The translations under genes were made by a program, and so were the position numbers. Positions 1 to 19,709 of a stretch of 19,709 nt of DNA are shown here, one piece after another. The notes beneath the pieces are model-generated. The model saw only the letters and a program-made list of their open reading frames with translations, had not been told where the DNA came from and ran no database searches. The stretch is from Bdellovibrionota bacterium. Lineage in GTDB: Bacteria > Bdellovibrionota_C > UBA2361 > JBIKWN01. The DNA lies in the NCBI GenBank assembly GCA_044356295.1, contig JBIKWN010000049.1, positions 1 through 19,709 of the forward strand. The letters are read 5' to 3'. Every line of letters starts with the position of its first letter. The first letter of the stretch is position 1.

Positions 1-662
1 GGTAAAACAGATGGAAGTGCAGCAGAAGCAAATCCATGCTTTGCATGAAGTTGTTCTCGGTAACATACTTCGAATGAAGCGCCTTCGAGTACTTCAGGTG
101 AGATGCGTTGGTGTGTACTTGCAAATAAAAGAGGGCGACGAGCGAATCCCTCAACAGTAGTCATTACAGCAACTGCTTGAAGTTTTGGGTCTCTCACATG
201 CGGAGCAAGTCCACCGTAGCTATCGATAATCTCATCAATACGATGCATTAAGGGCGAGGGGTCAAAAATTGCAAGATTTGTAGCCGAAGGCCCAGGGGAA
301 AAATATTGAATCGAGGCCATTTTGATAGCACGAAAGAATGATCCAGTAGGGGAACCTGCAAAAGTATTCCGCCAAGTCCGCTCTCTCCAAAGATCGGATA
401 AAACATCAACGCTTTGAGGTAGTCCCTCCTTAAGGGCGGCACCAAGGACTAGGCCGTTGATAGATCCAATACTGCTTCCTATGATGATTGAAAATGGGTT
501 TTTTTCACTTAAAAATGGAATAAGAGCTCTGAGTGCGCCGGCCTGATATGCCGCTCTTGAACCGCCGCCGCTGAGCACTAGCGCAAGGTTCCCAGAGGTG
601 TCCAAAGTGCTTTTCTTGAATCCTACTGATGGGTTACTGTCTTCTTGTGGTTTACGTCTCAT
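1..662 (-). CDS. Patatin-like phospholipase family protein (partial, runs off the left edge)
   Basis: Not in the ORF track. I translated it manually from ATG at 662, which is preceded by an AAGGA SD-like sequence: MRRKPQED...NLALVLSGGGSRAAYQAG...IIGSSIGSING...GFASAALPSVL. This has the glycine-rich GGGxR oxyanion loop, the GxSxG nucleophile and the ASAAxP block. The frame is open to the window edge. Confidence 0.9.
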   Translation of the reverse strand, partial: MRRKPQEDSNPSVGFKKSTLDTSGNLALVLSGGGSRAAYQAGALRALIPFLSEKNPFSIIIGSSIGSINGLVLGAALKEGLPQSVDVLSDLWRERTWRNTFAGSPTGSFFRAIKMASIQYFSPGPSATNLAIFDPSPLMHRIDEIIDSYGGLAPHVRDPKLQAVAVMTTVEGFARRPLLFASTHQRISPEVLEGASFEVCYREQLHAKHGFASAALPSVL

Positions 663-784
663 CTGTCCTTACAGATATGATGTCGGAATTATTAAAAGCG
701 TTCTAAACAATTGAGCGCTAAATTGTTGTTTTTATGGTGTAAAAAACCATTCCAGGCTTTCCAAACAAGGTAGATCCAGAAAAA

Positions 785-1660
785 TTAGGATAATAATTGA
801 GCATTAAAGCTAATTTGAAAAGTGAAGTTTTCCTCAGGTTTTAATACTGGAGCAGGGGAAATAACTCCTGATTCAACACACACAAATGTAGGTTCTAAGA
901 GATCTTTTAAACCGTGTTGAGTTCCAGGATTCCAAAGAACAGAACCACCGCAATTTTCAGTTTTAATTGTTAGCTGATATTTATCTGAAATGACTTCTAA
1001 GTTTTTGTCAGATTTTGGATATACCCGGTCGAATGGTGGGTGAAAAAGTGTTGGAAAAGGGCTCTCATGTTCTTTAAGTGAAAGCTTATCAAGATTATCA
1101 AGGTAAGAGCCTCCGAGTCCTGAAACGATTGTCTTTGATGGATCAGTTGTTTCCCAATAGCAATGAATAACAAACTGAGCGGGAGCTTCCTCTGTTCCAA
1201 TATTTTTTATTGAGCAGTTTATTTCAATATCACTTTGTTTTGAGAAGTCATAGGAAACGGTTAATCTAAAATTGGTCTCGTTATATCCAGGAGCAGATGC
1301 ATGTGTAGTTGTAAAATGAATTGCGTTTGCGTCGTCTATATTTAGACAATCCCAAACACTTTTCCTCGCATTACCATGTTGCGGCTCTACAATTGTTTTA
1401 TTAGGAAGTAAAAGCCCTTTACCAAAATACGGCGCACAGATTGGGGCACCTCCGCGGTAAGCTGTCTTTCCATCTGTTATAGCTGACTGATTATTTTCAA
1501 AAAGTATAGGGGTTCCTTCTTTCTCCCATCCAAGTAATTGTCCACCAAATCGAGATAACCTAAAAATATTATCTCGGTTTCTTACTTCAATAATATCAAG
1601 TTCACCACGTTGATAGTTGGTAACATTACAAAGAGGTGTTATTTTTTTTGTTTCGATCAT
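785..1660 (-). CDS. D-hexose-6-phosphate mutarotase / aldose 1-epimerase family protein (YeaD-like)
   Basis: Motifs RGGAPICAPYFG (cf. RGGIPICWPWFG), QHGNAR (cf. HGFAR), IHCYW, FDRVY, VLWNPG and FVCVE. Its start overlaps the menE 3' end by 35 bp. Confidence 0.85.
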   Translation of the reverse strand: MIETKKITPLCNVTNYQRGELDIIEVRNRDNIFRLSRFGGQLLGWEKEGTPILFENNQSAITDGKTAYRGGAPICAPYFGKGLLLPNKTIVEPQHGNARKSVWDCLNIDDANAIHFTTTHASAPGYNETNFRLTVSYDFSKQSDIEINCSIKNIGTEEAPAQFVIHCYWETTDPSKTIVSGLGGSYLDNLDKLSLKEHESPFPTLFHPPFDRVYPKSDKNLEVISDKYQLTIKTENCGGSVLWNPGTQHGLKDLLEPTFVCVESGVISPAPVLKPEENFTFQISFNAQLLS

Positions 1661-2777
1661 ACAAATATTGATTCTTTAATTCTTGAGTCATTATCTTTCC
1701 GAGAGTATTTCGTGGGAAAGCATCACAGATAAAAGTATCAGAGATCTGAGCATACGGTGGAAGTATTGAATTATAAATAGATAAAAGATCTGGTTTTGCA
1801 TCTTTTCCTTCAAGTGCAAGAATTATCTTATTCTCAGAGCGATTATCTGGTATTGGAAAGATTGTTGAGTGAAAAATAGATTCATCATCAAGTTTTTTTG
1901 AAATTTTGTGGATTACAGAATCTAGGTTTAACAACTCGCCATTAATTTTTATAGTGTTTTTTGATCTTCCAAGAGGTTTTATGAAATCTTGGTTCTGTTC
2001 AAAGTAGTCATCGGTGACAAACCAACCATTCTGTTTAGGATCTGTATAGCTAACCTTGTTATCTTTAATTTCAAAGTATCCTTCAAAAAGGCAGGGGCTT
2101 TTTATTGAAAGAAGATTATCCTGAGTAATATTCCACTCAACATGCGGCAAGGGTTTTACGAATAAGTACTGGTCGTCTACAAGCAATTCTTTTGTGACAA
2201 TTCTAGCAGCAAGCATTGCTGAGCTTTCTGTCATTCCAAATGTATTTATTATTTGCCAACCCAATGCTAATGCTTTTTTAGCAACCGAATTCGGCAGTAA
2301 TCCACCACCTATCAGCACTGCTTTTAAAGACTGTGGGGGATGTAAATTCCCTTCAGTGATATCGAAAAGTTGAGTTGGTACTAAGGATGTATGGGTGACA
2401 TTGTTAACTAAGAGTTGATTGTGAAAATCAACAACATTCCAGTTTGAAAAAGATAAGAGAGAAGCACTACTTAACCAACTTCGCGCTGCTATAGCTAAAC
2501 CTCCGACATGAAAAAGAGGAAGAGGATTGAGCCAAATATCATTTTTTGAAGCACCGAGAAATTGATTTACAGAATCTGCCGCAGCAAGAAATGAGTGTTT
2601 CTTAATCGCAGCAATTTTGGCAGTAGTCGTTGTACCTGACGTTGCAACTAAAATCAGAGACTGGTTGTTATCAATTGTTTTCAGTATTTGATTAAAAAAC
2701 TCTTTATCTTCATTACTGATTCGTGGATTGAAAATCGCTATATTTTGTTCTGATTCAAAGTCAATAATCGTTGTCAT
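1626..2777 (-). CDS. menE: O-succinylbenzoate-CoA ligase (compact AMP-binding enzyme)
   Basis: Adenylate-forming motifs TSGTT..AK, LPLFHVGGL, SLVPTQL, FGMTE, GR...IKINGE and PRNTLGK; lies directly downstream of menC. Start moved from 2870 to ATG 2777 (10 bp after the menC stop) to avoid an 83-bp overlap. Confidence 0.88.
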   Translation of the reverse strand: MTTIIDFESEQNIAIFNPRISNEDKEFFNQILKTIDNNQSLILVATSGTTTTAKIAAIKKHSFLAAADSVNQFLGASKNDIWLNPLPLFHVGGLAIAARSWLSSASLLSFSNWNVVDFHNQLLVNNVTHTSLVPTQLFDITEGNLHPPQSLKAVLIGGGLLPNSVAKKALALGWQIINTFGMTESSAMLAARIVTKELLVDDQYLFVKPLPHVEWNITQDNLLSIKSPCLFEGYFEIKDNKVSYTDPKQNGWFVTDDYFEQNQDFIKPLGRSKNTIKINGELLNLDSVIHKISKKLDDESIFHSTIFPIPDNRSENKIILALEGKDAKPDLLSIYNSILPPYAQISDTFICDAFPRNTLGKIMTQELKNQYLYDRNKKNNTSL

Positions 2778-2787
2778 GACAGTTCTT

Positions 2788-3744
2788 TTATAGTTCTTGC
2801 CAAGGAATGTTTTCAAGGAGTTTATCAAACCCAAAACCTGTACCCGTGGCTGGGACAAAAAGTCCATCACGGTCGGTTATTTCATTAAAAAAAGGATCTT
2901 CTTGATAGGCAGAAAAGCTTGAATAGCCACCGGTTAGAACCTCATTGGGATGCTTTTTAAAAAGCATCCCACTTGCCCATGCGGCTGCAGATACGCCTAG
3001 TGCATGATCCATAGAGCTTGTTACTACAATCTTTCTTCCTCTCTTCACTTCTTCTTCAGCAATACTTTCATACGTTTGTACCATTGGTTTAATTATTCGA
3101 ACGCTATAATGTTCGCCAATAAAGTCAGAAGAATAAAAATCATAGGCTAGGGGAATAGTATGGCTCTCTGCAAGCAAAGCCCAATCTTTTTGATTGTACG
3201 GAATTGGATCTTCAATAAATTCGATTTTTGATTTTACTGCATCACTTAGTGATAACCAAAAAATTAAAAAAGTATCCAACGTATAAAGTGCATTTGCATC
3301 GAGCCGAATTTTTTTAGAATACTCGGCGCAAGCTGTAACATTTTTAAAATCTTTTTCCGGATCGCAGGTGAGTTTAATTTTTATACATTCATGTATAAAA
3401 GATTCATTTTGAATTTTGATAAATGAATCGACATCTGTTACGAGCCTATGACTTTTTGGAACTGTTACAGAAGCGAAAAGAGAGACCTGTTGTTTTCTAG
3501 CTTCGGCATCAATCTCGGCAAAATGGAGTGCGGCACTGACGAGGTTTGTTTTGATTTTTGAGTTCCTTATCGAATTTATTTGCTCTTCGAGAGGTTCATC
3601 GCCAAATTCTGTCCAAGGAAAGACAGAGCTGTATCCCCCGTCATATTTAATAATAACTCCATGACGTGTTGTCTTTTTCTGGACAGCTGAATTGAGGGCT
3701 CCTTTTGATTTCAATGTGAAGTGCGAGAATGCTCTTGGTACCAT
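2788..3744 (-). CDS. menC: o-succinylbenzoate synthase (enolase superfamily)
   Basis: KxK motif (CIKIKL), metal ligands RLDAN, FIEDP and LAYD, plus IIKP. The N-terminus contains PWxExGDxxLEEQ. Men-cluster context supports the call. Confidence 0.88.
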   Translation of the reverse strand: MVPRAFSHFTLKSKGALNSAVQKKTTRHGVIIKYDGGYSSVFPWTEFGDEPLEEQINSIRNSKIKTNLVSAALHFAEIDAEARKQQVSLFASVTVPKSHRLVTDVDSFIKIQNESFIHECIKIKLTCDPEKDFKNVTACAEYSKKIRLDANALYTLDTFLIFWLSLSDAVKSKIEFIEDPIPYNQKDWALLAESHTIPLAYDFYSSDFIGEHYSVRIIKPMVQTYESIAEEEVKRGRKIVVTSSMDHALGVSAAAWASGMLFKKHPNEVLTGGYSSFSAYQEDPFFNEITDRDGLFVPATGTGFGFDKLLENIPWQEL

Positions 3745-3847
3745 GAGATTTTGTATCGATTTGGATTAAGTCGGATATATATAGATATTTTACTATTTTT
3801 CAAATTTAGTTTGATTATGGAGCTAAAATATTGGATTCTCTCGGGCA

Positions 3848-6121
3848 ATGCAGTACGAATCTAGGGGCTCTAACGACGAACCTCCCATCCCTATAACGCC
3901 TTCTTTACGTGATGGTACACAAGATTTTCGGAATTTTACAGCGTCCGCTTCTCATGAATCGCATGAATCGACCCCAGAAAAGTCGCTTCTCGATGGCCGT
4001 CCGATGCTTGAATATCTCGATGAATTCGCTCGTCTCGTTCTAGCAAACGATGTAGTCATTCTTGATGCTGAAACGGGGGCAGGAAAATCTACACTTGCTC
4101 CTGCTCATTTACTCAAATTATTCAAAAAAGTTATTTGTACACTACCTCGAAGACTTCTTGCACATGCTCTTGGTCCATTTGTCGCAAAAGAGAAAGGTCT
4201 TGAATATGGTAAAGATGTTGGAGTAATGACCGCTCAAGTAAAAGAAGCTTCAGCAAAAGATACTAGGCTTTTGTTTTGTACTGATGGATGGGCCGCTCAA
4301 GTTTTAATGAGTCAGAATAATAAAGATGATAATCCTCATAAAGATAAGAGCACCTCTAAAGCTTGGTGGAAGAAAGGAGAACCAGACGCTTTAGTTATCG
4401 ATGAAGCTCATGAACAAAATTTAGCGCAAGAATTGCTTTTGGCTCATTGGAGAGAACAATATATTAGATGGTCTCAAGGGACTATTTCAGATGGAGTGCC
4501 TGTTCCAAAACCACCAAAACTTATTTTAATGTCTGCAACATTAGGTATAGAGAAGCTTCTAAGGTTCTTTATTGAAAGTTGTGGGGTTAAAGAGGGCTCC
4601 ATTGATCTCCTAAAAGTTCCTGGAAGACAATTCCCAATAGAAGATAGATACCAACCAAACCTTTTTATTCCAGATGAGATATTGAAGACTTCCCAGGAAG
4701 GAAGAGAAACTTTGATTTTTGAAAAAGGCAAACGTGAGATCGAAGAATTATGTGATGCCATTAATGTCATTGGTGCCCCAACTATTACTTTGCCCCTCTA
4801 CCGTGATTTAACAAGAGAGAGGCAAGAGGCATGTTTTAGAAAATATTTGCTTCCAAGAACTATTGTTTCAACAAATATTGCTGAATCAGGAGCTACGCCT
4901 GATGTAGATGAGGTCATTAGTACAGGATTGATGAAGGCATTAATGCCAAATGAACGCGGAGGGTATTGTCTCTCTATTCTAGAATGTCCTCAATTTAATT
5001 TAACTCAGCAGAGAGGGCGCGTTGGAAGAACAAAGCCTGGTATTTGGACACTAGCTGGTGGATCTCCGTTTGAAAAACGCGATGAGATGTTACCCCCTGA
5101 ATTAAGACGTGCACCTCTTGAAGGAATGATGCTCAATATTATTAAAGGGGGATTTAATCCTGAGAATTTATCGTTTTTAAACGGTGATTCTAAAACATCT
5201 GAACGTATGAAAGCCGCTGTGTTAAATCTAAAATCTTTCGGATATGTAACACACACTAATCAAGGACTACAGCTTACAGAGAAAGGTGTGAAGTTTAAGC
5301 CTTATTCAGTTCGTTTTGAACTCAACGTTTTCTTAAATGAACTTAATGAAACTGTTGAAAAAGAGAAAGTTAAAAATCCTGCATTAGCAAAAGATCTTGA
5401 GAGATGGGGGCTCATTATTGCCGCTGTTGTGGAAGTTGGAAGGATTCATAAGCGTTGCGGGGACGATCCAACGAGGGAACCTTGGTTTCTTTTTGGAGAG
5501 ATAGCAAATGTAACGACAAATGATATTTTTGCACATGCCATTCTATTCACTAAAACTTTTAACATGGTTTCTACTTTAGCAATAGAATCTCAAAAAGAGG
5601 TTTCACCGAAATATTCATTTGAACAGAAGCTTGAAGCTCAGTTTGCAAATCTTCATCTTGATCCAAGAAAATATCAGCAAGTATTAGATATGCTGGATAT
5701 GATGACAAAAGGAGATCTTGATAAGGTACTGAGTAAAAGAGAACCTGATGAATTACTGGTGATGCCTGATAGCATTCCTAAAAATGGTACCGAAACAAGA
5801 ATCGTTGATGCTCTTATTAAAGGATTTAAAAATAATATCTTTGAGGTTATTCCCCAACCAAAAGAGCCAAAGAAAACCGAGAAAAAAGCAAAATATTATC
5901 AAAAACCAAAAGAGCAGATTTATGTAAGACATTCCGGATCAAGAGATGATTCTGAACCTTACGAAGTTGTAAAAAGTACCCTTATAAAAACCCCAACCAA
6001 TAATGATTGCATCATAGGATTGCCGTTTAGTCTTGAGAAAGATACAGGTGAAGTTGTGCACTTACTGCAATTCCCAGTTCTCGTATCGAGGCAACGCCTT
6101 AAGGGAGTACTTGAGAAGTAG
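3848..6121 (+). CDS. Divergent DEAH/RHA-family (HrpA/HrpB-like) ATP-dependent helicase
   Basis: Motif I AETGAGKST, Ia TLPRRLLA, Ib CTDG, II DEAHE, III MSAT, GRQFPIE, IV LIFEKGKREI, V STNIAESGAT, VI QQRGRVGR, followed by a WH/HA2-like LTEKG segment. Confidence 0.9.
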   Translation: MQYESRGSNDEPPIPITPSLRDGTQDFRNFTASASHESHESTPEKSLLDGRPMLEYLDEFARLVLANDVVILDAETGAGKSTLAPAHLLKLFKKVICTLPRRLLAHALGPFVAKEKGLEYGKDVGVMTAQVKEASAKDTRLLFCTDGWAAQVLMSQNNKDDNPHKDKSTSKAWWKKGEPDALVIDEAHEQNLAQELLLAHWREQYIRWSQGTISDGVPVPKPPKLILMSATLGIEKLLRFFIESCGVKEGSIDLLKVPGRQFPIEDRYQPNLFIPDEILKTSQEGRETLIFEKGKREIEELCDAINVIGAPTITLPLYRDLTRERQEACFRKYLLPRTIVSTNIAESGATPDVDEVISTGLMKALMPNERGGYCLSILECPQFNLTQQRGRVGRTKPGIWTLAGGSPFEKRDEMLPPELRRAPLEGMMLNIIKGGFNPENLSFLNGDSKTSERMKAAVLNLKSFGYVTHTNQGLQLTEKGVKFKPYSVRFELNVFLNELNETVEKEKVKNPALAKDLERWGLIIAAVVEVGRIHKRCGDDPTREPWFLFGEIANVTTNDIFAHAILFTKTFNMVSTLAIESQKEVSPKYSFEQKLEAQFANLHLDPRKYQQVLDMLDMMTKGDLDKVLSKREPDELLVMPDSIPKNGTETRIVDALIKGFKNNIFEVIPQPKEPKKTEKKAKYYQKPKEQIYVRHSGSRDDSEPYEVVKSTLIKTPTNNDCIIGLPFSLEKDTGEVVHLLQFPVLVSRQRLKGVLEK

Positions 6122-7058
6122 CAGTTCTAAGAACTAAATAGATCGAAGTGATAAGACAGAAGATAAGCTGATTTAATGCAATTTTCCCTAAAAATGAATT
6201 GAGCTTTTCACTAGGCTGGCTTTTATACAATTGAATAATAATGAGAGCAGAAATGATTAACGGAATACTAAATAGTAGGGTTGATGGATTTGCTCGAAGA
6301 GAGTCTCGATTGAGAAAAATCGCAGTTATGATGTAAGGAATTACTAAGAAGCAAATAATTGATAATTTTGAAAAACCTTCCCCATATCTTACAGCAAGGG
6401 TTTTTTTTGAAGCCCTACGATCTTGATAAATATCACGAAAATTATTGAGTCCAATCAGAGCCATCCCGAACGAACCAACTGCAATTCCATATGGTAATGT
6501 AGTAGTTAAATTCCAAGATAATGTTTGTAGATAAAAAGTTCCAACGACTGCAACAATGCCGTAATAAATCAGAACAAATAGTTCACCGAGACCATTATAA
6601 GCAAGTGGATAGGGGCCGCCTGTGTAAGCCCAACTAAAAAAAGCAGCAGAGAGTCCAACGGCAAGAATTGGCAGACCGCCTTTGATGACAAGTGGTATTC
6701 CAAAACATACAGCTATAATTATGCAAAGAAGCCCTGCACGTTTTACTTGAGAAGAAGTAAATATACCTGATTGCGTAACTCTTTTGGGGCCAAATCGCTC
6801 GTTGGTATCAGAGCCTTTGTCAAAGTCTATTGCATCGTTAAATAAATTTGATGCAATTTGCAGAAACATTGCACTGAATAATGTGCATAAAAAAATCAGA
6901 GTAAAGTTGTTAAGAGGATCCTCAAAAAAATCAACGGAGATACTTTTATGTGCATTGTAGGCGATTGCACTACCTACAATTACGGGTGAAATTGAAGCAG
7001 TCAGAGTTTTCGGACGAGCTGCTTGAATATATCCACTGAGGTTCGGCATAGATATCAT
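6099..7058 (-). CDS. menA: 1,4-dihydroxy-2-naphthoate polyprenyltransferase (UbiA family)
   Basis: ARPKTL N-terminus, Asp-rich motifs NDAIDFDKGSD and NNFRDIYQD, YTGGPYPLAYNGLGE, and multiple hydrophobic helices. An alternative start at ATG 7049 is possible. Confidence 0.93.
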   Translation of the reverse strand: MISMPNLSGYIQAARPKTLTASISPVIVGSAIAYNAHKSISVDFFEDPLNNFTLIFLCTLFSAMFLQIASNLFNDAIDFDKGSDTNERFGPKRVTQSGIFTSSQVKRAGLLCIIIAVCFGIPLVIKGGLPILAVGLSAAFFSWAYTGGPYPLAYNGLGELFVLIYYGIVAVVGTFYLQTLSWNLTTTLPYGIAVGSFGMALIGLNNFRDIYQDRRASKKTLAVRYGEGFSKLSIICFLVIPYIITAIFLNRDSLRANPSTLLFSIPLIISALIIIQLYKSQPSEKLNSFLGKIALNQLIFCLITSIYLVLRTATSQVLP

Positions 7059-7067
7059 TTAGGAATA

Positions 7068-7880
7068 TTACGGTAATCGAGGAAACTTTTTAAAGTTAGG
7101 TTTTCTTTTCTCTACAAATGCTTGTTTTCCTTCTTTTGCTTCTTCAGACATGTAGTAAAGAAGTGTTGCATTCCCTGCAAGATCTAAAAGTCCCATCTGC
7201 CCATCGCAATCTGCATTGAGTGATGCTTTAAGGCACCGAAGTGCCATCGGTGAATGTTCAAGCATTTCTCGGCACCATTTCACTGTTTCTTTTTCAAGTT
7301 GTTCGTATGGAACAACATGATTGACGAGCCCCATATCCAGTGCTTGCTGAGCATCGTACTGTCTACAAAGATACCAGATCTCTCTAGCTTTTTTTTGCCC
7401 AACAATTCTTGCTAAATAACTAGATCCCAATCCACCATCAAAGGATCCAACCTTAGGACCAGTTTGTCCAAACTTTGCATTATCAGCAGCAATTGTTAAG
7501 TCGCACACTACATGGAGTACATGTCCGCCACCAATTGCATACCCTGCAACCATTGCAACAACTGGTTTTGGAATCTGCCTAATTTGTTTCTGAACATCTA
7601 AAATATTGAGACGAGGGATACCGTCACTGCCAATATATCCAGCACTGCCACGAACTTTTTGATCACCACCTGAACAAAACGCTTCTTTGCCTTCACCGCA
7701 AAGAATCACTACACCGATAGAAGCATCTTCACGTGCAAGGTTAAAAGCTTCTTGCAGTTCGAAAACTGTTTTTGGACGGAATGCATTACGAACTTCAGGA
7801 CGATTGATAGTGATTTTACCAATACCGTCTTCAGTTTTTTCGTATTTAATATCTTCGAATTCTTTAATTTTGTTCCACAT
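7068..7880 (-). CDS. menB: 1,4-dihydroxy-2-naphthoyl-CoA synthase
   Basis: Highly conserved crotonase-fold MenB motifs: [60 protein letters not shown]. Start set at ATG 7880 (MWNKIKEF), overlapping the menH end by 17 bp. Confidence 0.97.
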
Positions 7881-8595
7881 AAGTGCGTATAAGAGTATCA
7901 ACAATAGAAGGTTTTTCCCACATGACGCGGTGCCCAGCGTCAGGAATGATTTCTAGTTGGATATTTTTAGCAATTTTGGCGCATTCTTTTGCTAAGGTGA
8001 CAAATTTATGGTCATTTTCGCCTACTATCCAAAGCAAAGTGAAAGGAAGAGTCGAAATTTTATGAGGTAGATAATCTTGTTTACCAAGTGACCAGTTGGT
8101 CAGTGCTCGATGTAATGCTTTGCGACTAAAGTCAGACTCTTGTCGAAATGGAGTTTGTAGGGAAGTTAGAGTAGGTTGAAGATTCCAGTCTTTGATTACT
8201 TCTTCCCAAGAATCATGGAGGAACCTGTTTGCCCAATGCAGATCGTTAGTGAGACGACCGGATCTCTCGGTTTCGGTCTGAAGTCCTGGATGAGATGAGA
8301 TTATCACTGCTTTTTCAAAAATGGTTGGATCCATTGTCATCGTTTGCAGAAGGAGCCTTCCACCAAATGAATATCCGATAGCAGTTTTAGGAGAGATTTT
8401 TTTTTCTTTAAAGCAATCCAATAGAAAAGAAGGAAGCTCTTTACTATCTTTTGAAAGTAGCATTGCGTCGGTTGAGTTATTTTTATTTGCACTAAAATAA
8501 TCAATAGTGAGATATGGAATTGATAGAAACGAAAAATCACTCTTTTCACCAAGAAAGCCTGGAAAACATACTGCACTTTTATCCGGCGAGTTCAT
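7864..8595 (-). CDS. menH: SHCHC synthase (alpha/beta hydrolase)
   Basis: PGFLG oxyanion loop, GYSFGGR nucleophile elbow, SSHPGL, GENDHKF (Asp) and AGH (His). ATG 8595 forms an ATGA overlap with the menD stop, implying translational coupling. Confidence 0.88.
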
Positions 8596-10118
8596 CTCAG
8601 AGAATTCCAGAATGTATTCCATGTATCCCAAAATTTATTTGTCTGAGTAGGATCAGGATTAACTTCAATCAGACTTTTTCCAAGTGTTCTTAAAGGTTTT
8701 GTAAATGTAGTCATTCTCTCAAAGTCGAGTCCCCACATTTTTGCGACATTACTAAAATCAAGATGATGGTGATTTGTAATTAAGGATTCCAGAGTTGGGT
8801 TTTCTTTGAAACTACTTTTTAGTTGAGGAAGTCTTCGAAAGATATCTCCGCCGTTATTATTAATAACGATAATAGTCACCGGTACTGAGGGGAACTCCTT
8901 CAGAATCCAAAACGAATTCAAACCGTACAGTGTGGTTAGATCACCAAAAATTCCCCAATTATGGCGATTTCCATCTAGATTCCCAAAGAAATGCGAAAGT
9001 TGTCCATCGATTCCGTTTGTTCCTCGCTGAACTGTAATTATAGGATGAGCTGTTTTTCTTGATGATGCTAAATCCCATTCCCTAATTGGCAAACTATTAC
9101 CAAGAAAGATTGAGTCATTACTGTGGATTAAGTGTGAAAGAGAATAAAAAAGAGATGGTTCAGAAAGAGGGTATTCATACAGCAGTCGATGAAGTTCTCG
9201 GTGCCCTCTGGCATCAAGCTGTTTAACTTCATCATCAATAGTAATAGGGGAGCCCAACGTTGCGTCCAAGAGTATCTCAGAAATATCACCAGTTATCAGG
9301 TGACCACGTGGTGTTCCACTAAATGGTTTAGAATCTATTGAAAGAACTGGAATCTGAGCGTTATCTAGATCCCTCCAACTTCGAAGTGTTGGAATAGAAC
9401 CGAGCCTAAGGACGCAATCAAATTTGTCTTTTTCAAGAGCCTTCTTTATGACTCTATCAGAGCCTTTGATTAAAATTTGCTCTAACCTTTTTAATTCCCT
9501 CAGTCCTGAGGGAGCCTCGGCATAGGTGATAGCACCGAGTTTAAGCAGAAATTGTTCGACTGCTTTTTGATCCTTAGAAGATAGTTCACCGAGAATAACG
9601 AGGGGTTGTTTCTTATTTTCAAGAAAATTTTGAATCGAAGTAGTTTCTTTTTGGGAATTTTGAACGGGAGTCGATATTTTTTGCCCTACATCTTCAATGC
9701 AAATATTTATATGGGAGGGTTTGTCACTAGGAACTTGAATTGAATCAAAGTCAATCATTTCATCTTCAACATCAATGCTATGTTCAATGTAATTTCCAAA
9801 AATATTTTTTTGCTCAATGGTTTGAGGAGCTCCGGTGCCTCGATATCGTTTTGGACGATCTGCGCTAATTATGACAAGTGGAATGCCACTATAAAAAGCT
9901 TCGATTACAGCAGAATGACACTCGCTTACCGCAGTGCCTGAAGTACAAACTACAGCGACTGGCTGACCCACTTTTTTCGCCAAACCAAGAGCAAAAAAAC
10001 TTGCTTCACGCTCATCAAAATGTGGGATGAGTCGATTCTTGGTATCTTTTGAGAGACGCTCAATGACGGGGATATTTCTAGACCCTGCACAAATAATAAA
10101 ATAAGAGATAGATTTCAA
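8592..10118 (-). CDS. menD: SEPHCHC synthase (ThDP-dependent)
   Basis: CAGSRN, DEREASFFALG, CTSGTA, SADRP, GAPQTI, GNSLPIR, RGTNGIDG and the ThDP motif GDLT...NNNGG. The start codon (TTG 10118) is uncertain. Confidence 0.95.
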   Translation of the reverse strand: MKSISYFIICAGSRNIPVIERLSKDTKNRLIPHFDEREASFFALGLAKKVGQPVAVVCTSGTAVSECHSAVIEAFYSGIPLVIISADRPKRYRGTGAPQTIEQKNIFGNYIEHSIDVEDEMIDFDSIQVPSDKPSHINICIEDVGQKISTPVQNSQKETTSIQNFLENKKQPLVILGELSSKDQKAVEQFLLKLGAITYAEAPSGLRELKRLEQILIKGSDRVIKKALEKDKFDCVLRLGSIPTLRSWRDLDNAQIPVLSIDSKPFSGTPRGHLITGDISEILLDATLGSPITIDDEVKQLDARGHRELHRLLYEYPLSEPSLFYSLSHLIHSNDSIFLGNSLPIREWDLASSRKTAHPIITVQRGTNGIDGQLSHFFGNLDGNRHNWGIFGDLTTLYGLNSFWILKEFPSVPVTIIVINNNGGDIFRRLPQLKSSFKENPTLESLITNHHHLDFSNVAKMWGLDFERMTTFTKPLRTLGKSLIEVNPDPTQTNKFWDTWNTFWNSLR

Positions 10119-10162
10119 TATGTTATGAGTGTATCTTATAGTCTCTAAGATGAAAAATATTT

Positions 10163-10189
10163 AGAGTAACAATGCGGAATTAAAGTCAA
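10163..10189 (-). promoter_or_regulatory. Candidate sigma70-type promoter for menD-menH-menB-menA
   Basis: Minus strand reads TTGACT (10189-10184), a 15-bp spacer, then TGn-TACTCT, an extended -10 (hexamer 10168-10163). The spacer is short and this is a prediction only. Confidence 0.35.
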
Positions 10190-10220
10190 TTTCTGAAAAT
10201 TATACCCCATATCAGAAGTG

Positions 10221-10226
10221 TATAAT
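10221..10226 (+). promoter_or_regulatory. Candidate -10 box for the 1360-aa ORF
   Basis: Perfect TATAAT 30 bp upstream of TTG 10257. No convincing -35, and the region is AT-rich. Confidence 0.25.
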
Positions 10227-10256
10227 TTAAATTAATTGAACGGTTAGGTAGTACAG

Positions 10257-13200
10257 TTGTCCGATAAAATTCGAATACAAAATCTTTCAACGAATCCCCA
10301 AAAGGGGACAGAAGATGCGCACCTGCTCGCAGGTTGGCAGTTTGGTACTGAAAAGGATTTTGGTGTCGAATCAGGAAGACTTCCTGCAATAGTAACAATC
10401 CGAAAGCTCATGGTTCGACTTATGAGTGCACCACTTCGAAGTGGTATCTTTGATGTTTTAAAGCATTTTGAAATTAACAGGTCTACATTTTCTTCTTTCC
10501 CAAAAGATTCTCAGCATAAATTTAAAGAAGGATATTTAATTTCAATTGCTGAAAGTATTTATAAAGGAGTTGATAAAGGATTTGGAGCAGGTACAAAAGA
10601 TAAACAATCACTCGGAAAAATTGCGAGTCTTATATCATCTGCATTAAAAAATGTTCGTTATTGGGAAGAGAATTTTAGTGATGTTACAGTAAGAATTCCT
10701 GAAAATAGATCTCAGTGGGCTGAAAATAAATCACATCTATTTGGTTATTTTTCAGAAGAGAATTCAGAAAATCTTAAGAAAAAGTATATTAATATTGCCC
10801 CTCATCTCTTAAATCCTATTTTTGGTGATAAGGTTCGAATATTTCTTGTTTCACTGGTGATAGCAAAGTGCATGGCAGATCATTGGGCTAAAAAAAATAG
10901 AATGGCGCTTCGTGAAAAAGATCCAAAGAACCCAGCACATCATCTTTATAAAGTGATGAAGCGAAGAGTCAATACCTTTGGAATTACTGAAGCAGCAGCA
11001 ATGGATTCCGCAATTGGAAATCTCATAATAGGACGTGAAATTTTGAGAAGTAATTGGGGGGTTGCTCCGCGTCTTCGAGTTCTTATTTCCGAACCGTTTG
11101 AAATATTTCGAATACGCCGGAAACAAGTTCCATCTTTTATTATTGATGTAAAAAATGCATTAGACCGAGTTAGTCTGAGCCCTAAATTTGACTCAGGTGA
11201 TATATTATTTTCAATTGCAGCATCACGTCTTGATAAGAGTGCTTCTGATATTAGTAAAACTGAAGTTTCCTCAGTAGTGAAAAAAGAGGAGCGTGATGCA
11301 ATTACTTTAGCACACCAGAAACTAAGCCTCGCCTTTGCAGATCTTACTAATAATATTGAGCAGCAACAGGCTTATCACAAGGTAACTGCAATAGGAAATT
11401 GGCTCGGTCATAAAAAGCAACCTGCTGATGTTATTGTAGCAGGAATGCTTCTTGAGATTGCAGAAAGTAATCAGGAATATTTTGAAAAATTAGTTACTGC
11501 TTTTAGCTCTCATCAGAATCCCTACTTAAAGCGTGCTTCTGCACTAGCAAAGAATCAGTATCAATGCAAAGAGCATTTACAATACCCCGTAGAGTTGCCG
11601 AAGAATCTCGGTGATAATTTCTTCGAACAAAATGAAGTTGAGAGAGTGTTAGGTGTTTGGACGTATACAGCTCAAACGCTTGTCGTAGATGGTGATTTTG
11701 ATGATGTCATTAAAACTAGAAAACAAATTGCAACACTTGCAGCAGCGAAGTTGATCTTTAGTCTTAACCGTGATTATACAGATCTAACGAAGAATGAAAT
11801 TGTCGCACAAAGTATTATTGGTAGATTTTCATTAGTACCCGCTTTAAGAAAGCTTCAACTGGATTCAATTGCTAATAAAATTGAGCATGAAGTATTGGTT
11901 CAAAGAGGAGATCAGTACTACGAGATTATTCAGTCGATTCGTGAATCGCTCGGAATGGACCATGAGCAAGCAGAAAATTTCTTACATATCCTAGGTGGTG
12001 AAGTAAAAAGTAAGGTCAATTTTCCAATAAAAGCTGAATTAATAGAGATTTTTGGTAATGGAATCGAAGCTTTCTTCTACAAACCAATTAATGTTTCTTC
12101 TCTCAGGAGCTACGTAAACGAACAAATAAAAATCAAGAAAAATACTGTTAAAGAAAAATTCCAGTCTCAATTCCAAATGACCTTGAATATTGAAAATATT
12201 CAAAAAATACTTGAAGAAGATATAACGCAGTTGAAATGGGAAGCGAGAGAAAAAACCCCTGCATCAGAGCGCTCCAAAATATTTGATTCATATCGAGAAA
12301 ATCTTGATGCGATCTTGCGTGGTGAACCATCTCGATTTTCGGATACCCCTACCATTGATGAGATTTCCTCTACTCATATTGATAAGCTAGGAGCTCGAAT
12401 TCTTTTTAAGAATCAAAAAGACCTACAGAGCACACTTAATGAATTACTTCCTTGGATTGAAAAGGCTAAATCTCCTGATGTTGAAGATGAGTTAGTGAGG
12501 TTGCATCCGAATGCTGCACCGTTTATACGTGAAAAAATCTTAGAACTCGCTTTTCAACTCAATGCAACAGTAGGCGAGTCTGATTTTGTTCGTACGATGA
12601 TTGTTGTTAATCCCCGTGAGTTAACTCAAGACGTAAGCTATCCAGATAAGCTTATTATGCTTGATCTACATCTTGTAACAGAAGAACAAGTTGAGAAGAT
12701 GCTAAAAGGTGAAGCTGATAGCAAATATAAACGGGCTCATGGAGATATGAAATCTTCAAGAGAAGTTGTCAATTTCGCATTTCTTTCTTTCCTCAGAGAA
12801 CATGGAATCAAATTTACAGATGAAGGATTGCCTGTTTCTATACAAGAAGTTTTAAAAATATATCCTAAATTCTTACAATCTCTTGATTCGTATAAGCCTT
12901 TTCGATCATATGAGACAAATGAAATTGATTCCGAGTATGAAAATCATTCTGTTTCAGAGCCTGTATTAGAGAAAGGATTAGATGGAAAGTTTAAGATTGT
13001 ACCACCAAAAGAATTAATTTTAAGTGAGTTGATCTCACGAAATGGCCAAGTTTATCGAAAAAATTTCAGAGTGCTTGCTGGAACCCATACAGATGAGGTC
13101 TGTTTTAGATATCCGACCCAAGAAGGCAGATATCATAGAGTAGAATTTCATAATCCATGTGAAGTGATTTCAGAACGTATTAATTTCCCTGGCACAGTCG

Positions 13201-14339
13201 TGAGGAGCATTGAAGAAACAAGAAGACTGAAAGTTGATGATCCTGTTGCTCCGAAAGCTATATTAGATCTACTTGATCGACTTGCTATTAGGCCAAGCGA
13301 TCTCACACCACGTTATGCTATTGATGCAATTCGAAGAGATTCATGCCTTGCATCTAAAGAAGATGATCTTAAGAGAATCTTTGATGATCAAACCGTACAG
13401 ACGATAGTCGATTCATGGACTAAAAAAATATTTGCGCCGTATTCCGGGTTGTATGAATTAACTCCTAATGAATTAATTCACTTACTTGGTGATATTAGTA
13501 TTAGAGAGAGCAGTGCTCCAAATAGCGCTGGTCAGAGTGAGATTAAAAGTGAAGTATTTCCAAACGTTGTAAAAACAACAAAGTACTTACGAAGAAGAAT
13601 CCGGCAACGCCTCATACAATCTTTTCTAAGCGTAACTGCAGAAGAGCCATCACTATATACCGATAGTCAGTCTTGTGTGATGACTATAAATTTTGATGAG
13701 CGACGAAACGCTTTCCACACAATGATTGGGAGAATTGTCCAGGAAGAGAGTAGTAAGTTGGGGATAGCTGTCTCCGTTGATGGCTTTACAACTAGAGACG
13801 GTGGTGGGACTTCACGTGAAGCTAAGTGTTTGCAGTATACCTTTAGTCATTGGAATCAAGACGAGACATCGACACTTGAAATGTTACATAAACTTGCAAT
13901 CTCGGTTGCGTCACGCCTCGACTATGAACTACTTCCACGGATGGATGTTGCACCTGCACGTCGAGTAGAGAGAAAGCTTTCTATTAATGTTCCTCGAGAG
14001 CTCAATAGTTTTTGGAGGCTCGCTGCGGCTCTTGAAAAACTTGGATTGAGCGTTAATTCATCTGATACATTAGAAAACCCTTCGGAAGATCGCTTTAATA
14101 ACGAATCTGGATTCGTTGAAGTGTTACTTGGCTGTGAAGAATTGCAGACGTATCGAGTTATGGAAATTAAAGATTTGAGCGACCGAAATTATCGGTCTGA
14201 TGAAAAAGGGCGGTTGAAACGAGCAACCTATGCCTTAGAAAGCGAAATTATTGAAGCGTTAAAAGAATTTTTTACAGCAGAACAGGTGGAATCGATGAGA
14301 TCTTCTTTGAATCTATCTGTTATTGGACTGGACGGATAA
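10257..14339 (+). CDS. Giant divergent long RelA/SpoT homologue (RSH)-like protein with degenerate HD domain and N-terminal extension
   Basis: Colinear RSH-like motifs seen by eye: AYHKVTAIGNWL...VIVAGMLLEIAES (HD region), SLVPALRKLQLDSIANKIEH (cf. IYAPLAHRLG...ELED), REKTPASERSK (RxKxxxSxxxK), DKLGARI (DxxGxR), DLHLVTEE (cf. EIQIRT), AHGDMK (cf. AHWxYK), a TGS-like segment and C-terminal ACT-like segments. Confidence 0.72.
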   Translation: MSDKIRIQNLSTNPQKGTEDAHLLAGWQFGTEKDFGVESGRLPAIVTIRKLMVRLMSAPLRSGIFDVLKHFEINRSTFSSFPKDSQHKFKEGYLISIAESIYKGVDKGFGAGTKDKQSLGKIASLISSALKNVRYWEENFSDVTVRIPENRSQWAENKSHLFGYFSEENSENLKKKYINIAPHLLNPIFGDKVRIFLVSLVIAKCMADHWAKKNRMALREKDPKNPAHHLYKVMKRRVNTFGITEAAAMDSAIGNLIIGREILRSNWGVAPRLRVLISEPFEIFRIRRKQVPSFIIDVKNALDRVSLSPKFDSGDILFSIAASRLDKSASDISKTEVSSVVKKEERDAITLAHQKLSLAFADLTNNIEQQQAYHKVTAIGNWLGHKKQPADVIVAGMLLEIAESNQEYFEKLVTAFSSHQNPYLKRASALAKNQYQCKEHLQYPVELPKNLGDNFFEQNEVERVLGVWTYTAQTLVVDGDFDDVIKTRKQIATLAAAKLIFSLNRDYTDLTKNEIVAQSIIGRFSLVPALRKLQLDSIANKIEHEVLVQRGDQYYEIIQSIRESLGMDHEQAENFLHILGGEVKSKVNFPIKAELIEIFGNGIEAFFYKPINVSSLRSYVNEQIKIKKNTVKEKFQSQFQMTLNIENIQKILEEDITQLKWEAREKTPASERSKIFDSYRENLDAILRGEPSRFSDTPTIDEISSTHIDKLGARILFKNQKDLQSTLNELLPWIEKAKSPDVEDELVRLHPNAAPFIREKILELAFQLNATVGESDFVRTMIVVNPRELTQDVSYPDKLIMLDLHLVTEEQVEKMLKGEADSKYKRAHGDMKSSREVVNFAFLSFLREHGIKFTDEGLPVSIQEVLKIYPKFLQSLDSYKPFRSYETNEIDSEYENHSVSEPVLEKGLDGKFKIVPPKELILSELISRNGQVYRKNFRVLAGTHTDEVCFRYPTQEGRYHRVEFHNPCEVISERINFPGTVVRSIEETRRLKVDDPVAPKAILDLLDRLAIRPSDLTPRYAIDAIRRDSCLASKEDDLKRIFDDQTVQTIVDSWTKKIFAPYSGLYELTPNELIHLLGDISIRESSAPNSAGQSEIKSEVFPNVVKTTKYLRRRIRQRLIQSFLSVTAEEPSLYTDSQSCVMTINFDERRNAFHTMIGRIVQEESSKLGIAVSVDGFTTRDGGGTSREAKCLQYTFSHWNQDETSTLEMLHKLAISVASRLDYELLPRMDVAPARRVERKLSINVPRELNSFWRLAAALEKLGLSVNSSDTLENPSEDRFNNESGFVEVLLGCEELQTYRVMEIKDLSDRNYRSDEKGRLKRATYALESEIIEALKEFFTAEQVESMRSSLNLSVIGLDG

Positions 14340-14349
14340 AATAGGCATT

Positions 14350-15387
14350 TCAAGGATGCGCAGTAATTTTATCCTTAATTGATCTTCGCTTTAATGCCAA
14401 CTCAGCAATCTCACTTTCCACGATACTTTCCTCAATAACGCCACATCCAGCACCGAGTCGAATCTGATCACGCTCCCAAAAGAGTGAACGAATTGCCGCA
14501 ATACATAAAGACTTCTTAGAGATAGGATCATAAACGCCGAATGGGGCTGCAAAATAGTGACGAGGAATTTTCATATCACTCCCCTTCAAGATAGCTTTTG
14601 CGTTATCAGTTCTTGGATACACTCCTACAGCTGCAGTGGGATGTAATGCTTGAACGAGTTCTTCAAAATGCAACAGTCGTTGCGACTGGAGCTGTATTTT
14701 AGCTCTAAGATGGATGAGAGATCCGTTCCAATATGGAATAGTTGAGCTTACTTTGACATCACCGAATTGTTTTAGTTGCTGTAAAATATCATCGATGACT
14801 AATTGATGTTCACGGATATCTTTAGGATTCTTTATTGATCGATCGCCAAATTGTGAAGCTTGAGTACCTGCAAGTGCAGCAGATGTAATAGTGGATTCTA
14901 TCTGTTCAAAGAGTAGCTCCGGTGTTAGCCCGCAAATGCCAATACCATTTTTTTGAAAACCAAACAGATATAAATCGCTTGAAAGGTACTTCATGAAGCG
15001 CTCTGTTAGTATACTGAGAGTCTCATTGTTCCAAGAAGGAGGAGCTATCCCAGTTTCAAACGATACGGGTACTATCTTTTCTAGCAGACCTTCATCGATG
15101 GATTGTTTTATTTTAAGAAAGAATTTTCTGAATTTTTGATCATCAGAATGTTGCCACTCAATGTTATCCTGTGAATGGTTATGATTTTTTAGAAACGTTT
15201 CGGCAAATGTATTGATTGAAATCTCTTGTACAGTCTCAGGAATAATCCAAGGCGTTTTATTTTGGAGAAAATAATCATTCAGGTAAAAGCTCTTTTTTAC
15301 TGAATCAGGCTCTTTTGAAGGATGTAAAGCGCCAGACCCAACAATAATTGTCTCTGGATTAGTTTGGATGAATATATAATCGCTCAT
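14350..15387 (-). CDS. menF: Isochorismate synthase (chorismate-binding MST family)
   Basis: EKIV, TPELL, ALAGT, KDIREHQLV, HL, LHPTAAVG, AIRS and GAGCGV motifs. Same strand as, and upstream of, the men cluster. Confidence 0.9.
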   Translation of the reverse strand: MSDYIFIQTNPETIIVGSGALHPSKEPDSVKKSFYLNDYFLQNKTPWIIPETVQEISINTFAETFLKNHNHSQDNIEWQHSDDQKFRKFFLKIKQSIDEGLLEKIVPVSFETGIAPPSWNNETLSILTERFMKYLSSDLYLFGFQKNGIGICGLTPELLFEQIESTITSAALAGTQASQFGDRSIKNPKDIREHQLVIDDILQQLKQFGDVKVSSTIPYWNGSLIHLRAKIQLQSQRLLHFEELVQALHPTAAVGVYPRTDNAKAILKGSDMKIPRHYFAAPFGVYDPISKKSLCIAAIRSLFWERDQIRLGAGCGVIEESIVESEIAELALKRRSIKDKITAHP

Positions 15388-15480
15388 GACTGGTAACTGC
15401 TTCTTTTGTATGCTCTTTCCTCAGAGCATCGTTTTAATCATAATTCTCTTACAGAAAAAAAAATAGGGATTGGGGCTTTG

Positions 15481-16200
15481 TTGAATACGAAACACAGAAT
15501 AGTGATTGCAATTGATGGTTTAGCCGGTACTGGTAAATCTACTTTGGCAAAGCTTCTTGCTGAAAAATTACAGTATCAACATTTAAATACTGGGCTTATT
15601 TATAGGTCAGTCGCCTTCCTTATGACTGAGCATAACCTTTCAGTGACTGAGCCAGATAAAATACTCTCTGTAATGAGTCAGAACACGATCTCTATTGAAA
15701 GTGATACTGATGCTCGATCGCTCGTTAGGTTTTCGGATGGGCGCATTTTTTATTATGAGGACCTCCTGAGTGAAGAGGTCAGTAAAAATGCATCCCAGGT
15801 TGCTGCATTAGAGCCTATTAGATCTTCTTTGCTTGATTTGCAGAGAAAAGCTTATCCGAATACTCCAATTGTTGCAGAAGGAAGGGATATGGGTACGGTC
15901 ATTTTTCCTGATGCTGATATTAAGTTTTTTATTGAAGTTCCTTCAGTAATTAGGTCCGAGAGAAGGCTTAGACAGCTTCAAGAGGCTGGAGTTTTGGTTG
16001 GAAAAAACATAGAGGAAGAGAAAAAACAGATAGAATCCGATATCTTAGACCGAGATATGCGAGATTCAAAGCGCTCCGTTGCCCCATGTATTCCAGCAAC
16101 AGATGCCATTATTTTTGACAACAGTATTCTAAGTTTGACCCAAGCGGTCGCCGAGCTGTATCATCAGATATCTTTACGCCTTACCAAACAAGCCAATTAA
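15481..16200 (+). CDS. cmk: Cytidylate kinase
   Basis: IAIDGLAGTGKST P-loop, LNTGLIYR, VAEGRDMGTVIFPDA and RDMRDSKR; conserved cmk-rpsA synteny. Start set at TTG 15481 after a GGGG SD-like stretch (the track start at 15406 is also a TTG). Confidence 0.95.
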   Translation: MNTKHRIVIAIDGLAGTGKSTLAKLLAEKLQYQHLNTGLIYRSVAFLMTEHNLSVTEPDKILSVMSQNTISIESDTDARSLVRFSDGRIFYYEDLLSEEVSKNASQVAALEPIRSSLLDLQRKAYPNTPIVAEGRDMGTVIFPDADIKFFIEVPSVIRSERRLRQLQEAGVLVGKNIEEEKKQIESDILDRDMRDSKRSVAPCIPATDAIIFDNSILSLTQAVAELYHQISLRLTKQAN

Positions 16201-16259
16201 ATGGTTCTTTTGGTCGAACAAACAGCGCGAAAGAAATCATAAAAAGGAAAATAAATTAA

Positions 16260-17957: not shown

Positions 17958-17974
17958 TCAGTTCTTTCTGATGC

Positions 17975-18006
17975 AGCGGTTGAAACTTCAGCCGCTTGTT
18001 GTTTTT
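17975..18006 (+). terminator. Hairpin with U-rich tail after rpsA (first candidate intrinsic terminator)
   Basis: AGCGGTTGA-AACT-TCAGCCGCT forms a 9-bp stem with one G-U pair, followed by TGTTGTTTTT. Confidence 0.55.
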
Positions 18007-18007
18007 C

Positions 18008-18037
18008 AAAAAGCACTCCGAAAGGCGTGCTTTTTTT
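18008..18037 (+). terminator. Rho-independent terminator after rpsA (second hairpin, possibly bidirectional)
   Basis: AAAAA-GCACTCC-GAAA-GGCGTGC-TTTTTTT: GNRA loop, one mismatch, 7-T tail. Confidence 0.7.
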
Positions 18038-18114
18038 GTAATATGGTCTTCGAGTTACAAAGATAAAAATAAAAGATAGGATGAAATTGTAATTTATTAA
18101 GAGATGGGTGATAC

Positions 18115-19203: not shown

Positions 19204-19329
19204 ATTTTTCTTAAGAAAGATGATTTTGATATAATTCGTACATGTCTGAGTTAACTGATTTAGGCAAAGATAGGTAGTTTAAAAAAATATTATAAAATTT
19301 CAAAAATTAAGATTGATTCTCTTTCGCGC

Positions 19330-19709
19330 ATGGAACAAATAGTACACAAACCCATCCTTCCAATAGTAATTCCTGAGCCAGCTTTTTATGGTAGGCATGG
19401 TTTGATGCTTTCTGAAATGTTTGGCACTACATTAGATCAATTCATTGGACTGAAGATACTTGATATTCCCGGTGGTCCATCAACGTTAAATCAAATGATT
19501 ACTAAACTGGCAAGTCGAGTTGGATGTTTTAAAACTCAGGTTATTTCATGTGATCCAGTTTATGAGTTACCTGAGGCAGAAATCTGGAAAAAAGCGGTTG
19601 ATGATATCAATAGAATAACAGATCTTTATTTTCAGCATCCACAATCTTTAAATCCTTCTTACTTTGATGCTAGGACTCAACTTTCGATGCGACTCGCCGC
19701 CGTGATGGA
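19330..19709 (+). CDS. Putative class I SAM-dependent methyltransferase (partial, runs off the right edge)
   Basis: Not in the ORF track. Manual translation: MEQIVHKP...FYGR...EMFG...KILDIPGGPST...VISCDPVY. This has a motif I-like LDxPGGP and an acidic motif II. The frame is open to the window end. Confidence 0.65.
   Translation, partial: MEQIVHKPILPIVIPEPAFYGRHGLMLSEMFGTTLDQFIGLKILDIPGGPSTLNQMITKLASRVGCFKTQVISCDPVYELPEAEIWKKAVDDINRITDLYFQHPQSLNPSYFDARTQLSMRLAAVM

Follow-up and report, generated by a model that had tools for sequence, protein, structure and literature searches.

The men locus described here lies in a window of 19,709 nucleotides, the whole stretch of DNA that was analysed (contig JBIKWN010000049.1, positions 1 to 19,709 of the forward strand, assembly GCA_044356295.1), from a Bdellovibrionota bacterium, an uncultured freshwater (lake) organism represented by a metagenome-assembled draft of 128 contigs. 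Seven men genes, for the synthesis of menaquinone (vitamin K2), are carried on the minus strand and, read along that strand, follow the order menF, menD, menH, menB, menA, menC, and menE. A plus-strand gene encoding a protein of 1360 amino acids, referred to below as the orphan, stands between menF and menD, and a plus-strand gene for a DEAH-type helicase stands between menA and menC (Table 1). With two opposite-strand genes inside it, the cluster is not a single uninterrupted co-directional operon. Both intervening genes diverge from the men block to their left and converge on the men gene to their right. Mapping of open reading frames (ORFs) together with Pfam and NCBIfam searches confirmed the men gene content, order and strands given in an initial annotation of this DNA; the very short spacers that it had described among the men genes hold within the blocks, where neighbours abut, overlap or are separated by short spacers. 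We consider it most likely, from the sequence comparisons presented below, that the arrangement represents a former operon now divided among three men transcription units, whose 3′ ends overlap those of their convergent neighbours in the ordinary way.

Table 1 Features of the split men locus (positions in the window)
Feature	Position	Strand	Size	Remarks
menE (o-succinylbenzoate-CoA ligase), short form	1626..2870	-	414 aa (longest ORF)	Pfam AMP-binding, 77 bits
menC (o-succinylbenzoate synthase)	2788..3744	-		Pfam OSBS_N, 74.7 bits
menC/helicase spacer	3745..3847		103 bp	Divergent
DEAH/RHA-type RNA helicase (predicted)	3848..6121	+	757 aa	Between menA and menC
helicase/menA overlap	6099..6121		23 nt	Reading frames overlap tail to tail
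menA (1,4-dihydroxy-2-naphthoate [DHNA] polyprenyltransferase)	6099..7058	-		TIGR00751, 166.1 bits (cut-off 102.15); Pfam UbiA, 108 bits
menB (DHNA-CoA synthase)	7068..7904	-		NF005637, 503 bits (cut-off 380)
menH (2-succinyl-6-hydroxy-2,4-cyclohexadiene-1-carboxylate [SHCHC] synthase)	7864..8631	-		Alpha/beta-hydrolase Pfam matches
menD (2-succinyl-5-enolpyruvyl-6-hydroxy-3-cyclohexene-1-carboxylate [SEPHCHC] synthase), short form	8592..10118	-	508 aa	TIGR00173, 268.6 bits (cut-off 244.2)
menD/orphan spacer	10119..10256		138 bp	Divergent
Orphan ORF	10257..14339	+	1360 aa	Between menF and menD
orphan/menF gap	14340..14349		10 bp	Between converging stops
menF (isochorismate synthase), short form	14350..15387	-	345 aa	Pfam Chorismate_bind, 126.7 bits
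menF/cmk spacer	15388..15480		93 bp	Divergent

The curated NCBIfam cut-offs were passed by MenD, MenB, and MenA. The other four scored below the cut-offs of their top families, namely MenF (TIGR00543, 146.9 bits vs 224.75), MenH (TIGR03695, 141 bits vs 208.55), MenC (NF047905, a Bdellovibrio-type MenC model, 155.5 bits vs 500), and MenE (TIGR01923 menE, 148.8 bits vs 330.15), and were assigned by the best-scoring family and the conserved gene context. All men proteins of the window are short forms. MenB is too conserved for taxonomic placement, its best matches being a mixture of records titled Bdellovibrionota and Verrucomicrobia. The true start of menE is probably the ATG at 2777, 10 nt past the menC stop.

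The split layout is real and is inherited within the genus. Contigs assembled from other public runs bridge 3 of the 4 junctions between men and intervening genes with 0 differences: those of run X2 span 9579-10601 (starts of menD and the orphan) and 3422-5544 (starts of menC and the helicase gene), and one of run X3 spans 14136-14458 (stops of the orphan and menF). The helicase/menA junction was spanned only by a 7078-base contig of run X1, which is possibly the source sample. The same layout was found in G002, one of two further species of the genus (the other is G001; the window genome is G000). One contig of G002 carries the 5′ part of the orphan gene, menD-H-B-A, a helicase gene converging on menA with an overlap of 11 nt, and then menC-E; a second carries rpsA, cmk, menF, and the converging 3′ part of the orphan gene. 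Mis-assembly or mis-binning that joined opposite-strand genes to men fragments, an artefact that the initial annotation had itself allowed for and that a draft in so many contigs might suggest, has a negligible probability in view of the bridged junctions and their recurrence in G002.

Protein identity between the window and G002 was 94% for RpsA and MenB, 69% for MenD and MenF, 56% for MenA, 48% for MenH, 41% for the helicase core, and 31.5-38% for the orphan. The layout was kept at identities from 94% down to 31.5% and has therefore survived considerable divergence. In the third species, G001, menA-B-H-D is followed by a divergent ORF of 1197 aa beside menD, and menF is represented only by its first 87 residues, which lie at the end of a separate contig (C339). 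The gene converging on this 1197-aa ORF (L004:7284-8975) is not menF; it encodes another orphan, of at least 563 aa, that has no Pfam match. Short contigs with many substitutions relative to window positions 830-17003 were also obtained from run X4, suggesting that a strain or species related to it was present in a different lake sample.

The order of men genes in other genomes was surveyed at 80 menB loci from species-representative genomes, 45 of which had at least three colinear men genes. All seven genes were colinear and uninterrupted, in the order F-D-H-B-A-C-E, in L023, L049, L050, L055, and L064; this is the unbroken menFDHBACE that the initial annotation had proposed to look for in relatives, and it is thus present in five other lineages. 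Several more loci had the same order, lacking only the poorly detectable menC. Within the same order of bacteria as the window genome, menF and menD were neighbours in 6 of 7 loci from other families; menF was undetected in the seventh (L013). Because other families keep menF and menD adjacent and five lineages retain the uninterrupted row, both interruptions are derived. In 20 of the 45 loci the row had a gap of 1.2-9 kb, which in 8 cases contained an open frame of 200 aa or more on the opposite strand. The majority of these 8 were menA-menE gaps of 1.3-1.8 kb in which menC was merely undetected, and only L048 was counted as a clear case; it was also the only one of the 45 with large (>800 aa) opposite-strand genes inside the men row, at the H/B position. 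Two opposite-strand breaks in one men row were found in none of the 45.

In L048 (3551-9546; a record titled as a Parachlamydiaceae metagenome-assembled genome), menH and menB are separated by two opposite-strand genes, one encoding an SF1-helicase-like protein of 1077 aa (AAA_11/AAA_12) and the other a multicopper-oxidase-like protein of 867 aa, making this a second instance of a helicase gene lying antisense within a men cluster. In L006 (12538-17783; G021, of the same order as the window genome), menF-menD and menB-menA are 6.4 kb apart, and the gap contains an LD-carboxypeptidase gene in the men orientation, as well as two orphans (695 and 172 aa) that are encoded on the opposite strand and lack Pfam matches.

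The protein encoded between menA and menC appears, from domain matches, to be a helicase of the DEAH/RHA type and not an HrpA or HrpB equivalog. Two RecA-like domains with similarity to the DEAH family were recognised by Pfam (DEAD, 32.2 bits, cut-off 26; Helicase_C, 24.4 bits, cut-off 23.5), and residues ~42-483 matched Prp43-like and HrpA chains in the PDB at E values of 3e-24 to 3e-22. Scores against the equivalog models were far below their cut-offs (HrpB, 107.1 vs 546; HrpA, 99.3 vs 722.75) and covered only the core, residues ~41-483; the C-terminal 270 residues had no Pfam or NCBIfam match. Homologues of 715-751 aa occur in many families of the order; the search covered 30 other genera and detected them in 13 (14 of 31 including that of the window), and in the six genomes of other families that were inspected they lay in unrelated contexts with no men neighbours.

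The orphan is a real, fast-evolving gene restricted to the genus. Its reality is indicated by a frame open over 4.1 kb of AT-rich DNA and by conservation without stops in the G002 fragments (31.5% and 38% identical). An exhaustive HMMER search with residues 161-1360 against 1.84 billion representatives returned 2 proteins, P0004 (1256 aa, 37% identical) and a fragment of 307 aa; a word-index search found the orphan alone, and a profile word search found the orphan and P0004. No relatives were detected in scans of genome contigs and metagenome contigs. The 1197-aa ORF of G001 was not recognised as a relative by BLASTP; in hhalign it was aligned with the orphan at 74% probability (E 2.8e-5, 179 columns), compared with 0.1-0.5% for three controls, and it is a remote homologue. 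The controls were orphans encoded near men genes in L006 (695 aa, hhalign 0.1%), L005 (552 aa), and L004 (563 aa), and they are unrelated to the orphan of the window. The orphan has thus kept its place beside menD in all 3 species of the genus despite near-total divergence in sequence.

The orphan had been described as RSH-like in the initial annotation, a label that the searches did not support. It had no match in Pfam, NCBIfam, PADLOC or PHROGs; searched as four overlapping pieces, it had no Pfam match at E ≤ 10, including the RelA_SpoT synthetase domain (PF04607), and a PF04607 search of its own genome at E ≤ 1 found only a true RSH of 740 aa on contig C72. Alignment of the orphan with that RSH in hhalign gave a probability of 0.3%, and alignment of its best-conserved core (residues 680-900, four sequences) with 30 RSH synthetase domains gave 1.15% (P 0.046). 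The only stretch aligned in the latter placed a conserved Asp-x-Leu-Gly-x-Arg strand of the orphan on the corresponding synthetase strand (Asp-x-x-Gly-x-Arg), a weak lead only; the basic ATP-binding motif found ahead of this strand in RSH enzymes was not apparent in the orphan sequences. Two further leads pointed in the same direction and were similarly weak, RelA_SpoT being present in 15% and 12% of the members of clusters among the language-model neighbours of the orphan (scores 0.79 and 0.88) and a small alarmone synthetase being found by Foldseek at rank 26 (E 0.22) with a poor model. The suggested coupling of quinone synthesis to a pair of RNA/stress-type proteins may hold at most for the helicase; for the orphan, no RSH relationship could be demonstrated.

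Structure prediction gave little more. The two halves of the orphan were modelled poorly by AlphaFold2 (predicted local distance difference test scores of 48.2 and 47.1) from alignments of only 4 and 3 sequences. Foldseek returned nothing at E ≤ 0.001 for the C-terminal half, and a profile search of PDB sequences gave a best E value of 0.32. Fold comparison of the C-half model yielded only common ferredoxin/ACT-like units at model residues 486-589 and 596-721 with Z ≤ 9, about the level typical of models without a clear match (best Z 7 to 8). This pair, which falls in the last ~230 residues of the orphan, was the only fold signal obtained.

The data establish the gene map and its inheritance, the derived state of both interruptions, and the absence of terminators from the convergent junctions. 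For the history behind them, the initial annotation had offered two alternatives, a men transcript running antisense through both intervening genes or an operon broken into units with promoters of their own; the second is favoured by the uninterrupted relatives, the adjacency of menF and menD in other families, and the promoter-like elements shared with G002. An ancestral one-strand menF-D-H-B-A-C-E operon would have been broken twice in the ancestor of the genus, by insertion or relocation, when the lineage-specific orphan gene arrived on the opposite strand between menF and menD and the DEAH RNA-helicase gene arrived on the opposite strand between menA and menC. The present units would be menF, menDHBA, and menCE, each starting from a putative promoter in the spacer that it shares with a divergent neighbour (the cmk, orphan, and helicase genes, respectively). 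As the convergent pairs have no intergenic terminator, their mRNA 3′ ends probably overlap for some distance; convergent genes of this genome are usually arranged in this way. Rho may then stop read-through RNA that is untranslated and rich in C, and double-stranded overlaps may be cleaved by RNase III.

Promoter-like elements were found in all three spacers. On the men strand of the menD spacer, TTGACT (10189-10184) and CTAAATA (10164-10158) are separated by 19 nt, and the equivalent spacer of G002 contains TTGACT-N18-CTAAATA, the rest of the spacer being unalignable between the two genomes. Toward menC, a sigma-70-like TTGAAA-16-TATATA is present, with TTCACA-17-TAGAAT at the same place in G002; these are matches to the consensus only (9/12 and 10/12, respectively). 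The menF/cmk spacer shares with G002 a 10-mer (15437-15446) that reads TATGAT toward menF and CATAAT toward cmk and ends 49 nt (G000) or 48 nt (G002) from the menF ATG. The cmk ORF as listed starts with TTG at 15406; the in-frame TTG at 15481 is probably the true start, since similarity to G002 (from residue 29) and to the Pfam family sets in only around residues 29-34. With this start, the menF/cmk spacer contains a terminator-like hairpin (15410-15429; z -2.7) that has a short T run behind it on the plus strand and no evident counterpart in G002. This hairpin might terminate plus-strand transcripts that read through menF, or it might form a stem-loop at the 5′ end of the menF mRNA.

Neither convergent junction has a stable hairpin (z -0.2 and -0.8 at helicase/menA; z -0.2 and -0.5 at orphan/menF), no terminator-like site was found at orphan/menF, and the overlap of the helicase and menA frames leaves no room for an intergenic terminator. 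The end of rpsA has a clear terminator both in the window and in G002. Counts of terminator-like sites were near the expectation from shuffled sequences (21 vs 14.0 ± 2.7 in the window; 8 vs 8.9 in a further scan), and weak sites inside genes were not used. Searches of the genome detected genes for both Rho (695 bits) and RNase III (229 bits). In the minus-strand RNA, C is about twice as frequent as G over the first 250 nt past the menF stop (C:G per 100 nt of 23:12, 26:13, 26:14, and 27:13). At the rpsA gene, a contig joint omitting 358 bases (17164-17523) was seen in all four runs compared, at a depth of 35-51 against 2-10 locally; it probably derives from S1-repeat sequence of other organisms and not from a variant of the window gene. 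Farther along the window, an ORF of 362 aa (18115-19203) gave just a weak Pfam hit below threshold (DNA_alkylation, HEAT-like) and nothing in NCBIfam, and the ORF after it (19330-19707), truncated by the end of the window, matched nothing.

The genomic baseline was taken from a crude ORF-based set of 2418 ORFs on contigs of at least 5 kb. Among its 370 convergent pairs, 92 overlap and 119 are separated by 0-35 bp (together 211, or 57%), with a median distance of 20.5 bp; most convergent pairs in this genome leave no space for an intergenic terminator. Single opposite-strand ORFs inside co-directional runs numbered 91, 2 of which were at least 700 aa, one being the helicase gene of the window. 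Since tight convergent ends and opposite-strand singletons are common in the genome, the local geometry needs no special explanation. What is special here is only that a widely conserved pathway operon is interrupted twice.

Several observations weigh against a broken operon with its own promoters. The TTGACT/CTAAATA pair, of which the candidate menD promoter of the initial annotation (10163-10189) forms part, recurs in G002 but is missing from G001, and its spacing is long for sigma-70. The 10-mer before menF might just as well serve cmk as a promoter on the opposite strand, and promoter-like matches in the window were not enriched (40 vs 54.7 ± 7.8 in shuffled sequences). In G000 and G002, menF and menA both lack an intrinsic terminator downstream, which leads one to expect a degree of read-through into the antisense genes; the minus-strand RNA past the menA stop is not C-rich over its first 250 nt. 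The baseline depends on a crude gene set, and none of the public RNA runs searched for window DNA 5500-15400 contains it. The precedent of Staphylococcus aureus, taken up next, also counts on this side.

The strongest competing explanation, which we regard as rather unlikely, is a true noncontiguous operon: transcripts begun at the menF promoter, or at menD, would extend antisense across the 4.1-kb orphan gene, the 2.3-kb helicase gene or both, the men blocks would be co-transcribed, and men and intervening genes would repress each other by transcriptional interference and RNase III cleavage of duplexes. Its structural requirement, co-oriented related genes split by an opposite-strand gene, is present twice, at F/D and A/C, and is kept in two species; both convergent junctions lack an intrinsic terminator or stable hairpin, unlike the end of rpsA; an RNase III gene is present; and the orphan has remained beside menD in three species through extreme divergence. 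Direct precedent also exists, both men clusters of S. aureus having been shown experimentally to be noncontiguous operons (Iturbe et al. 2024, PMC11034616). Transcription of this kind would, however, produce several kilobases of untranslated RNA, C-rich after the menF stop, in a genome that has Rho. Both menD and menC are preceded by promoter-like elements common to G000 and G002, closely packed convergent ends are the norm for the genome, and in G001 menDHBA adjoins the orphan homologue with no menF next to it, so that menDHBA is apparently expressible without an upstream menF. Even in S. aureus, the much shorter antisense genes were crossed by only 35 of 1510 and 3 of 9168 reads (PMC11034616). 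The same study asks of a noncontiguous operon that one or more long transcripts span the two co-oriented sets together with the entire antisense gene, and states that such operons are not computationally predictable (PMC11034616). The most far-reaching form of this idea is a giant double noncontiguous operon, in which a men transcript of ~13.8 kb would be antisense to 6.4 kb of the two foreign genes and would make men expression and that of the helicase and the 1360-aa protein mutually exclusive, the orphan perhaps having a diverged RelA/SpoT-like nucleotidyltransferase core; we find this improbable.

Very unlikely, in our view, is a third possibility, that the intervening genes are tied to menaquinone synthesis not through antisense RNA but through shared bidirectional control regions (orphan/menD and helicase/menC), with one regulator site in each spacer driving both divergent genes. 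All 3 species of the genus retain the orphan/menD pair, the helicase/menC pair is retained in both species in which that region is assembled, and short words are common to the orphan/menD spacers. Neither protein has a known regulator, operator or function, though; men genes are absent from the surroundings of the helicase gene in the six other genomes that were inspected, and inheritance alone accounts for conservation within one genus.

The broken operon preferred here resembles contiguous men operons, such as menFDHBCE of Escherichia coli and the five uninterrupted loci of the survey, in its genes, their order, and the tight or overlapping junctions inside the blocks, and differs from them in being broken at F/D and A/C by opposite-strand genes. 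A men noncontiguous operon in S. aureus was reportedly described by Saenz-Lahoya et al. in 2019. The antisense genes of the window (2.3 and 4.1 kb) are believed to be several times longer than their counterparts there, and the window organism belongs to a phylum distant from S. aureus. The S. aureus noncontiguous operons are menE-menC-[01914]-ytkD-01912 and 00979-[menA]-00981-menFDHB, and disturbing one of them alters menaquinone levels (Iturbe et al. 2024, PMC11034616). The likeness to the window lies in the pathway, the co-oriented men genes split by an opposite-strand gene, the RNase III gene, and the two separate interruptions. In S. aureus, one antisense gene is menA itself and the partners include non-men genes, whereas both antisense genes of the window are foreign to the pathway; co-transcription there was established by direct RNA sequencing and reverse transcription PCR, and the window locus is known from DNA alone. 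The excludon and overlapping convergent transcription (reviewed in PMC7154746) share with the window opposite-strand neighbours with an expected overlap of transcripts; that concept rests on mapped long antisense transcripts, whereas the proven overlap in the window is 23 nt of coding sequence.

The locus reveals a large orphan protein family that is fixed next to menD and has diverged in sequence almost past recognition. Were the men blocks co-transcribed, this would be the first sign that menaquinone control by antisense genes, as in S. aureus, has recurred independently in an unrelated bacterium and over much longer distances; if a double noncontiguous operon were true, the principle of the S. 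aureus men operons would extend to a distant phylum with far longer antisense spans. As it stands, the locus is a clean, dated case of a conserved pathway operon that was split by gene insertion and yet kept.

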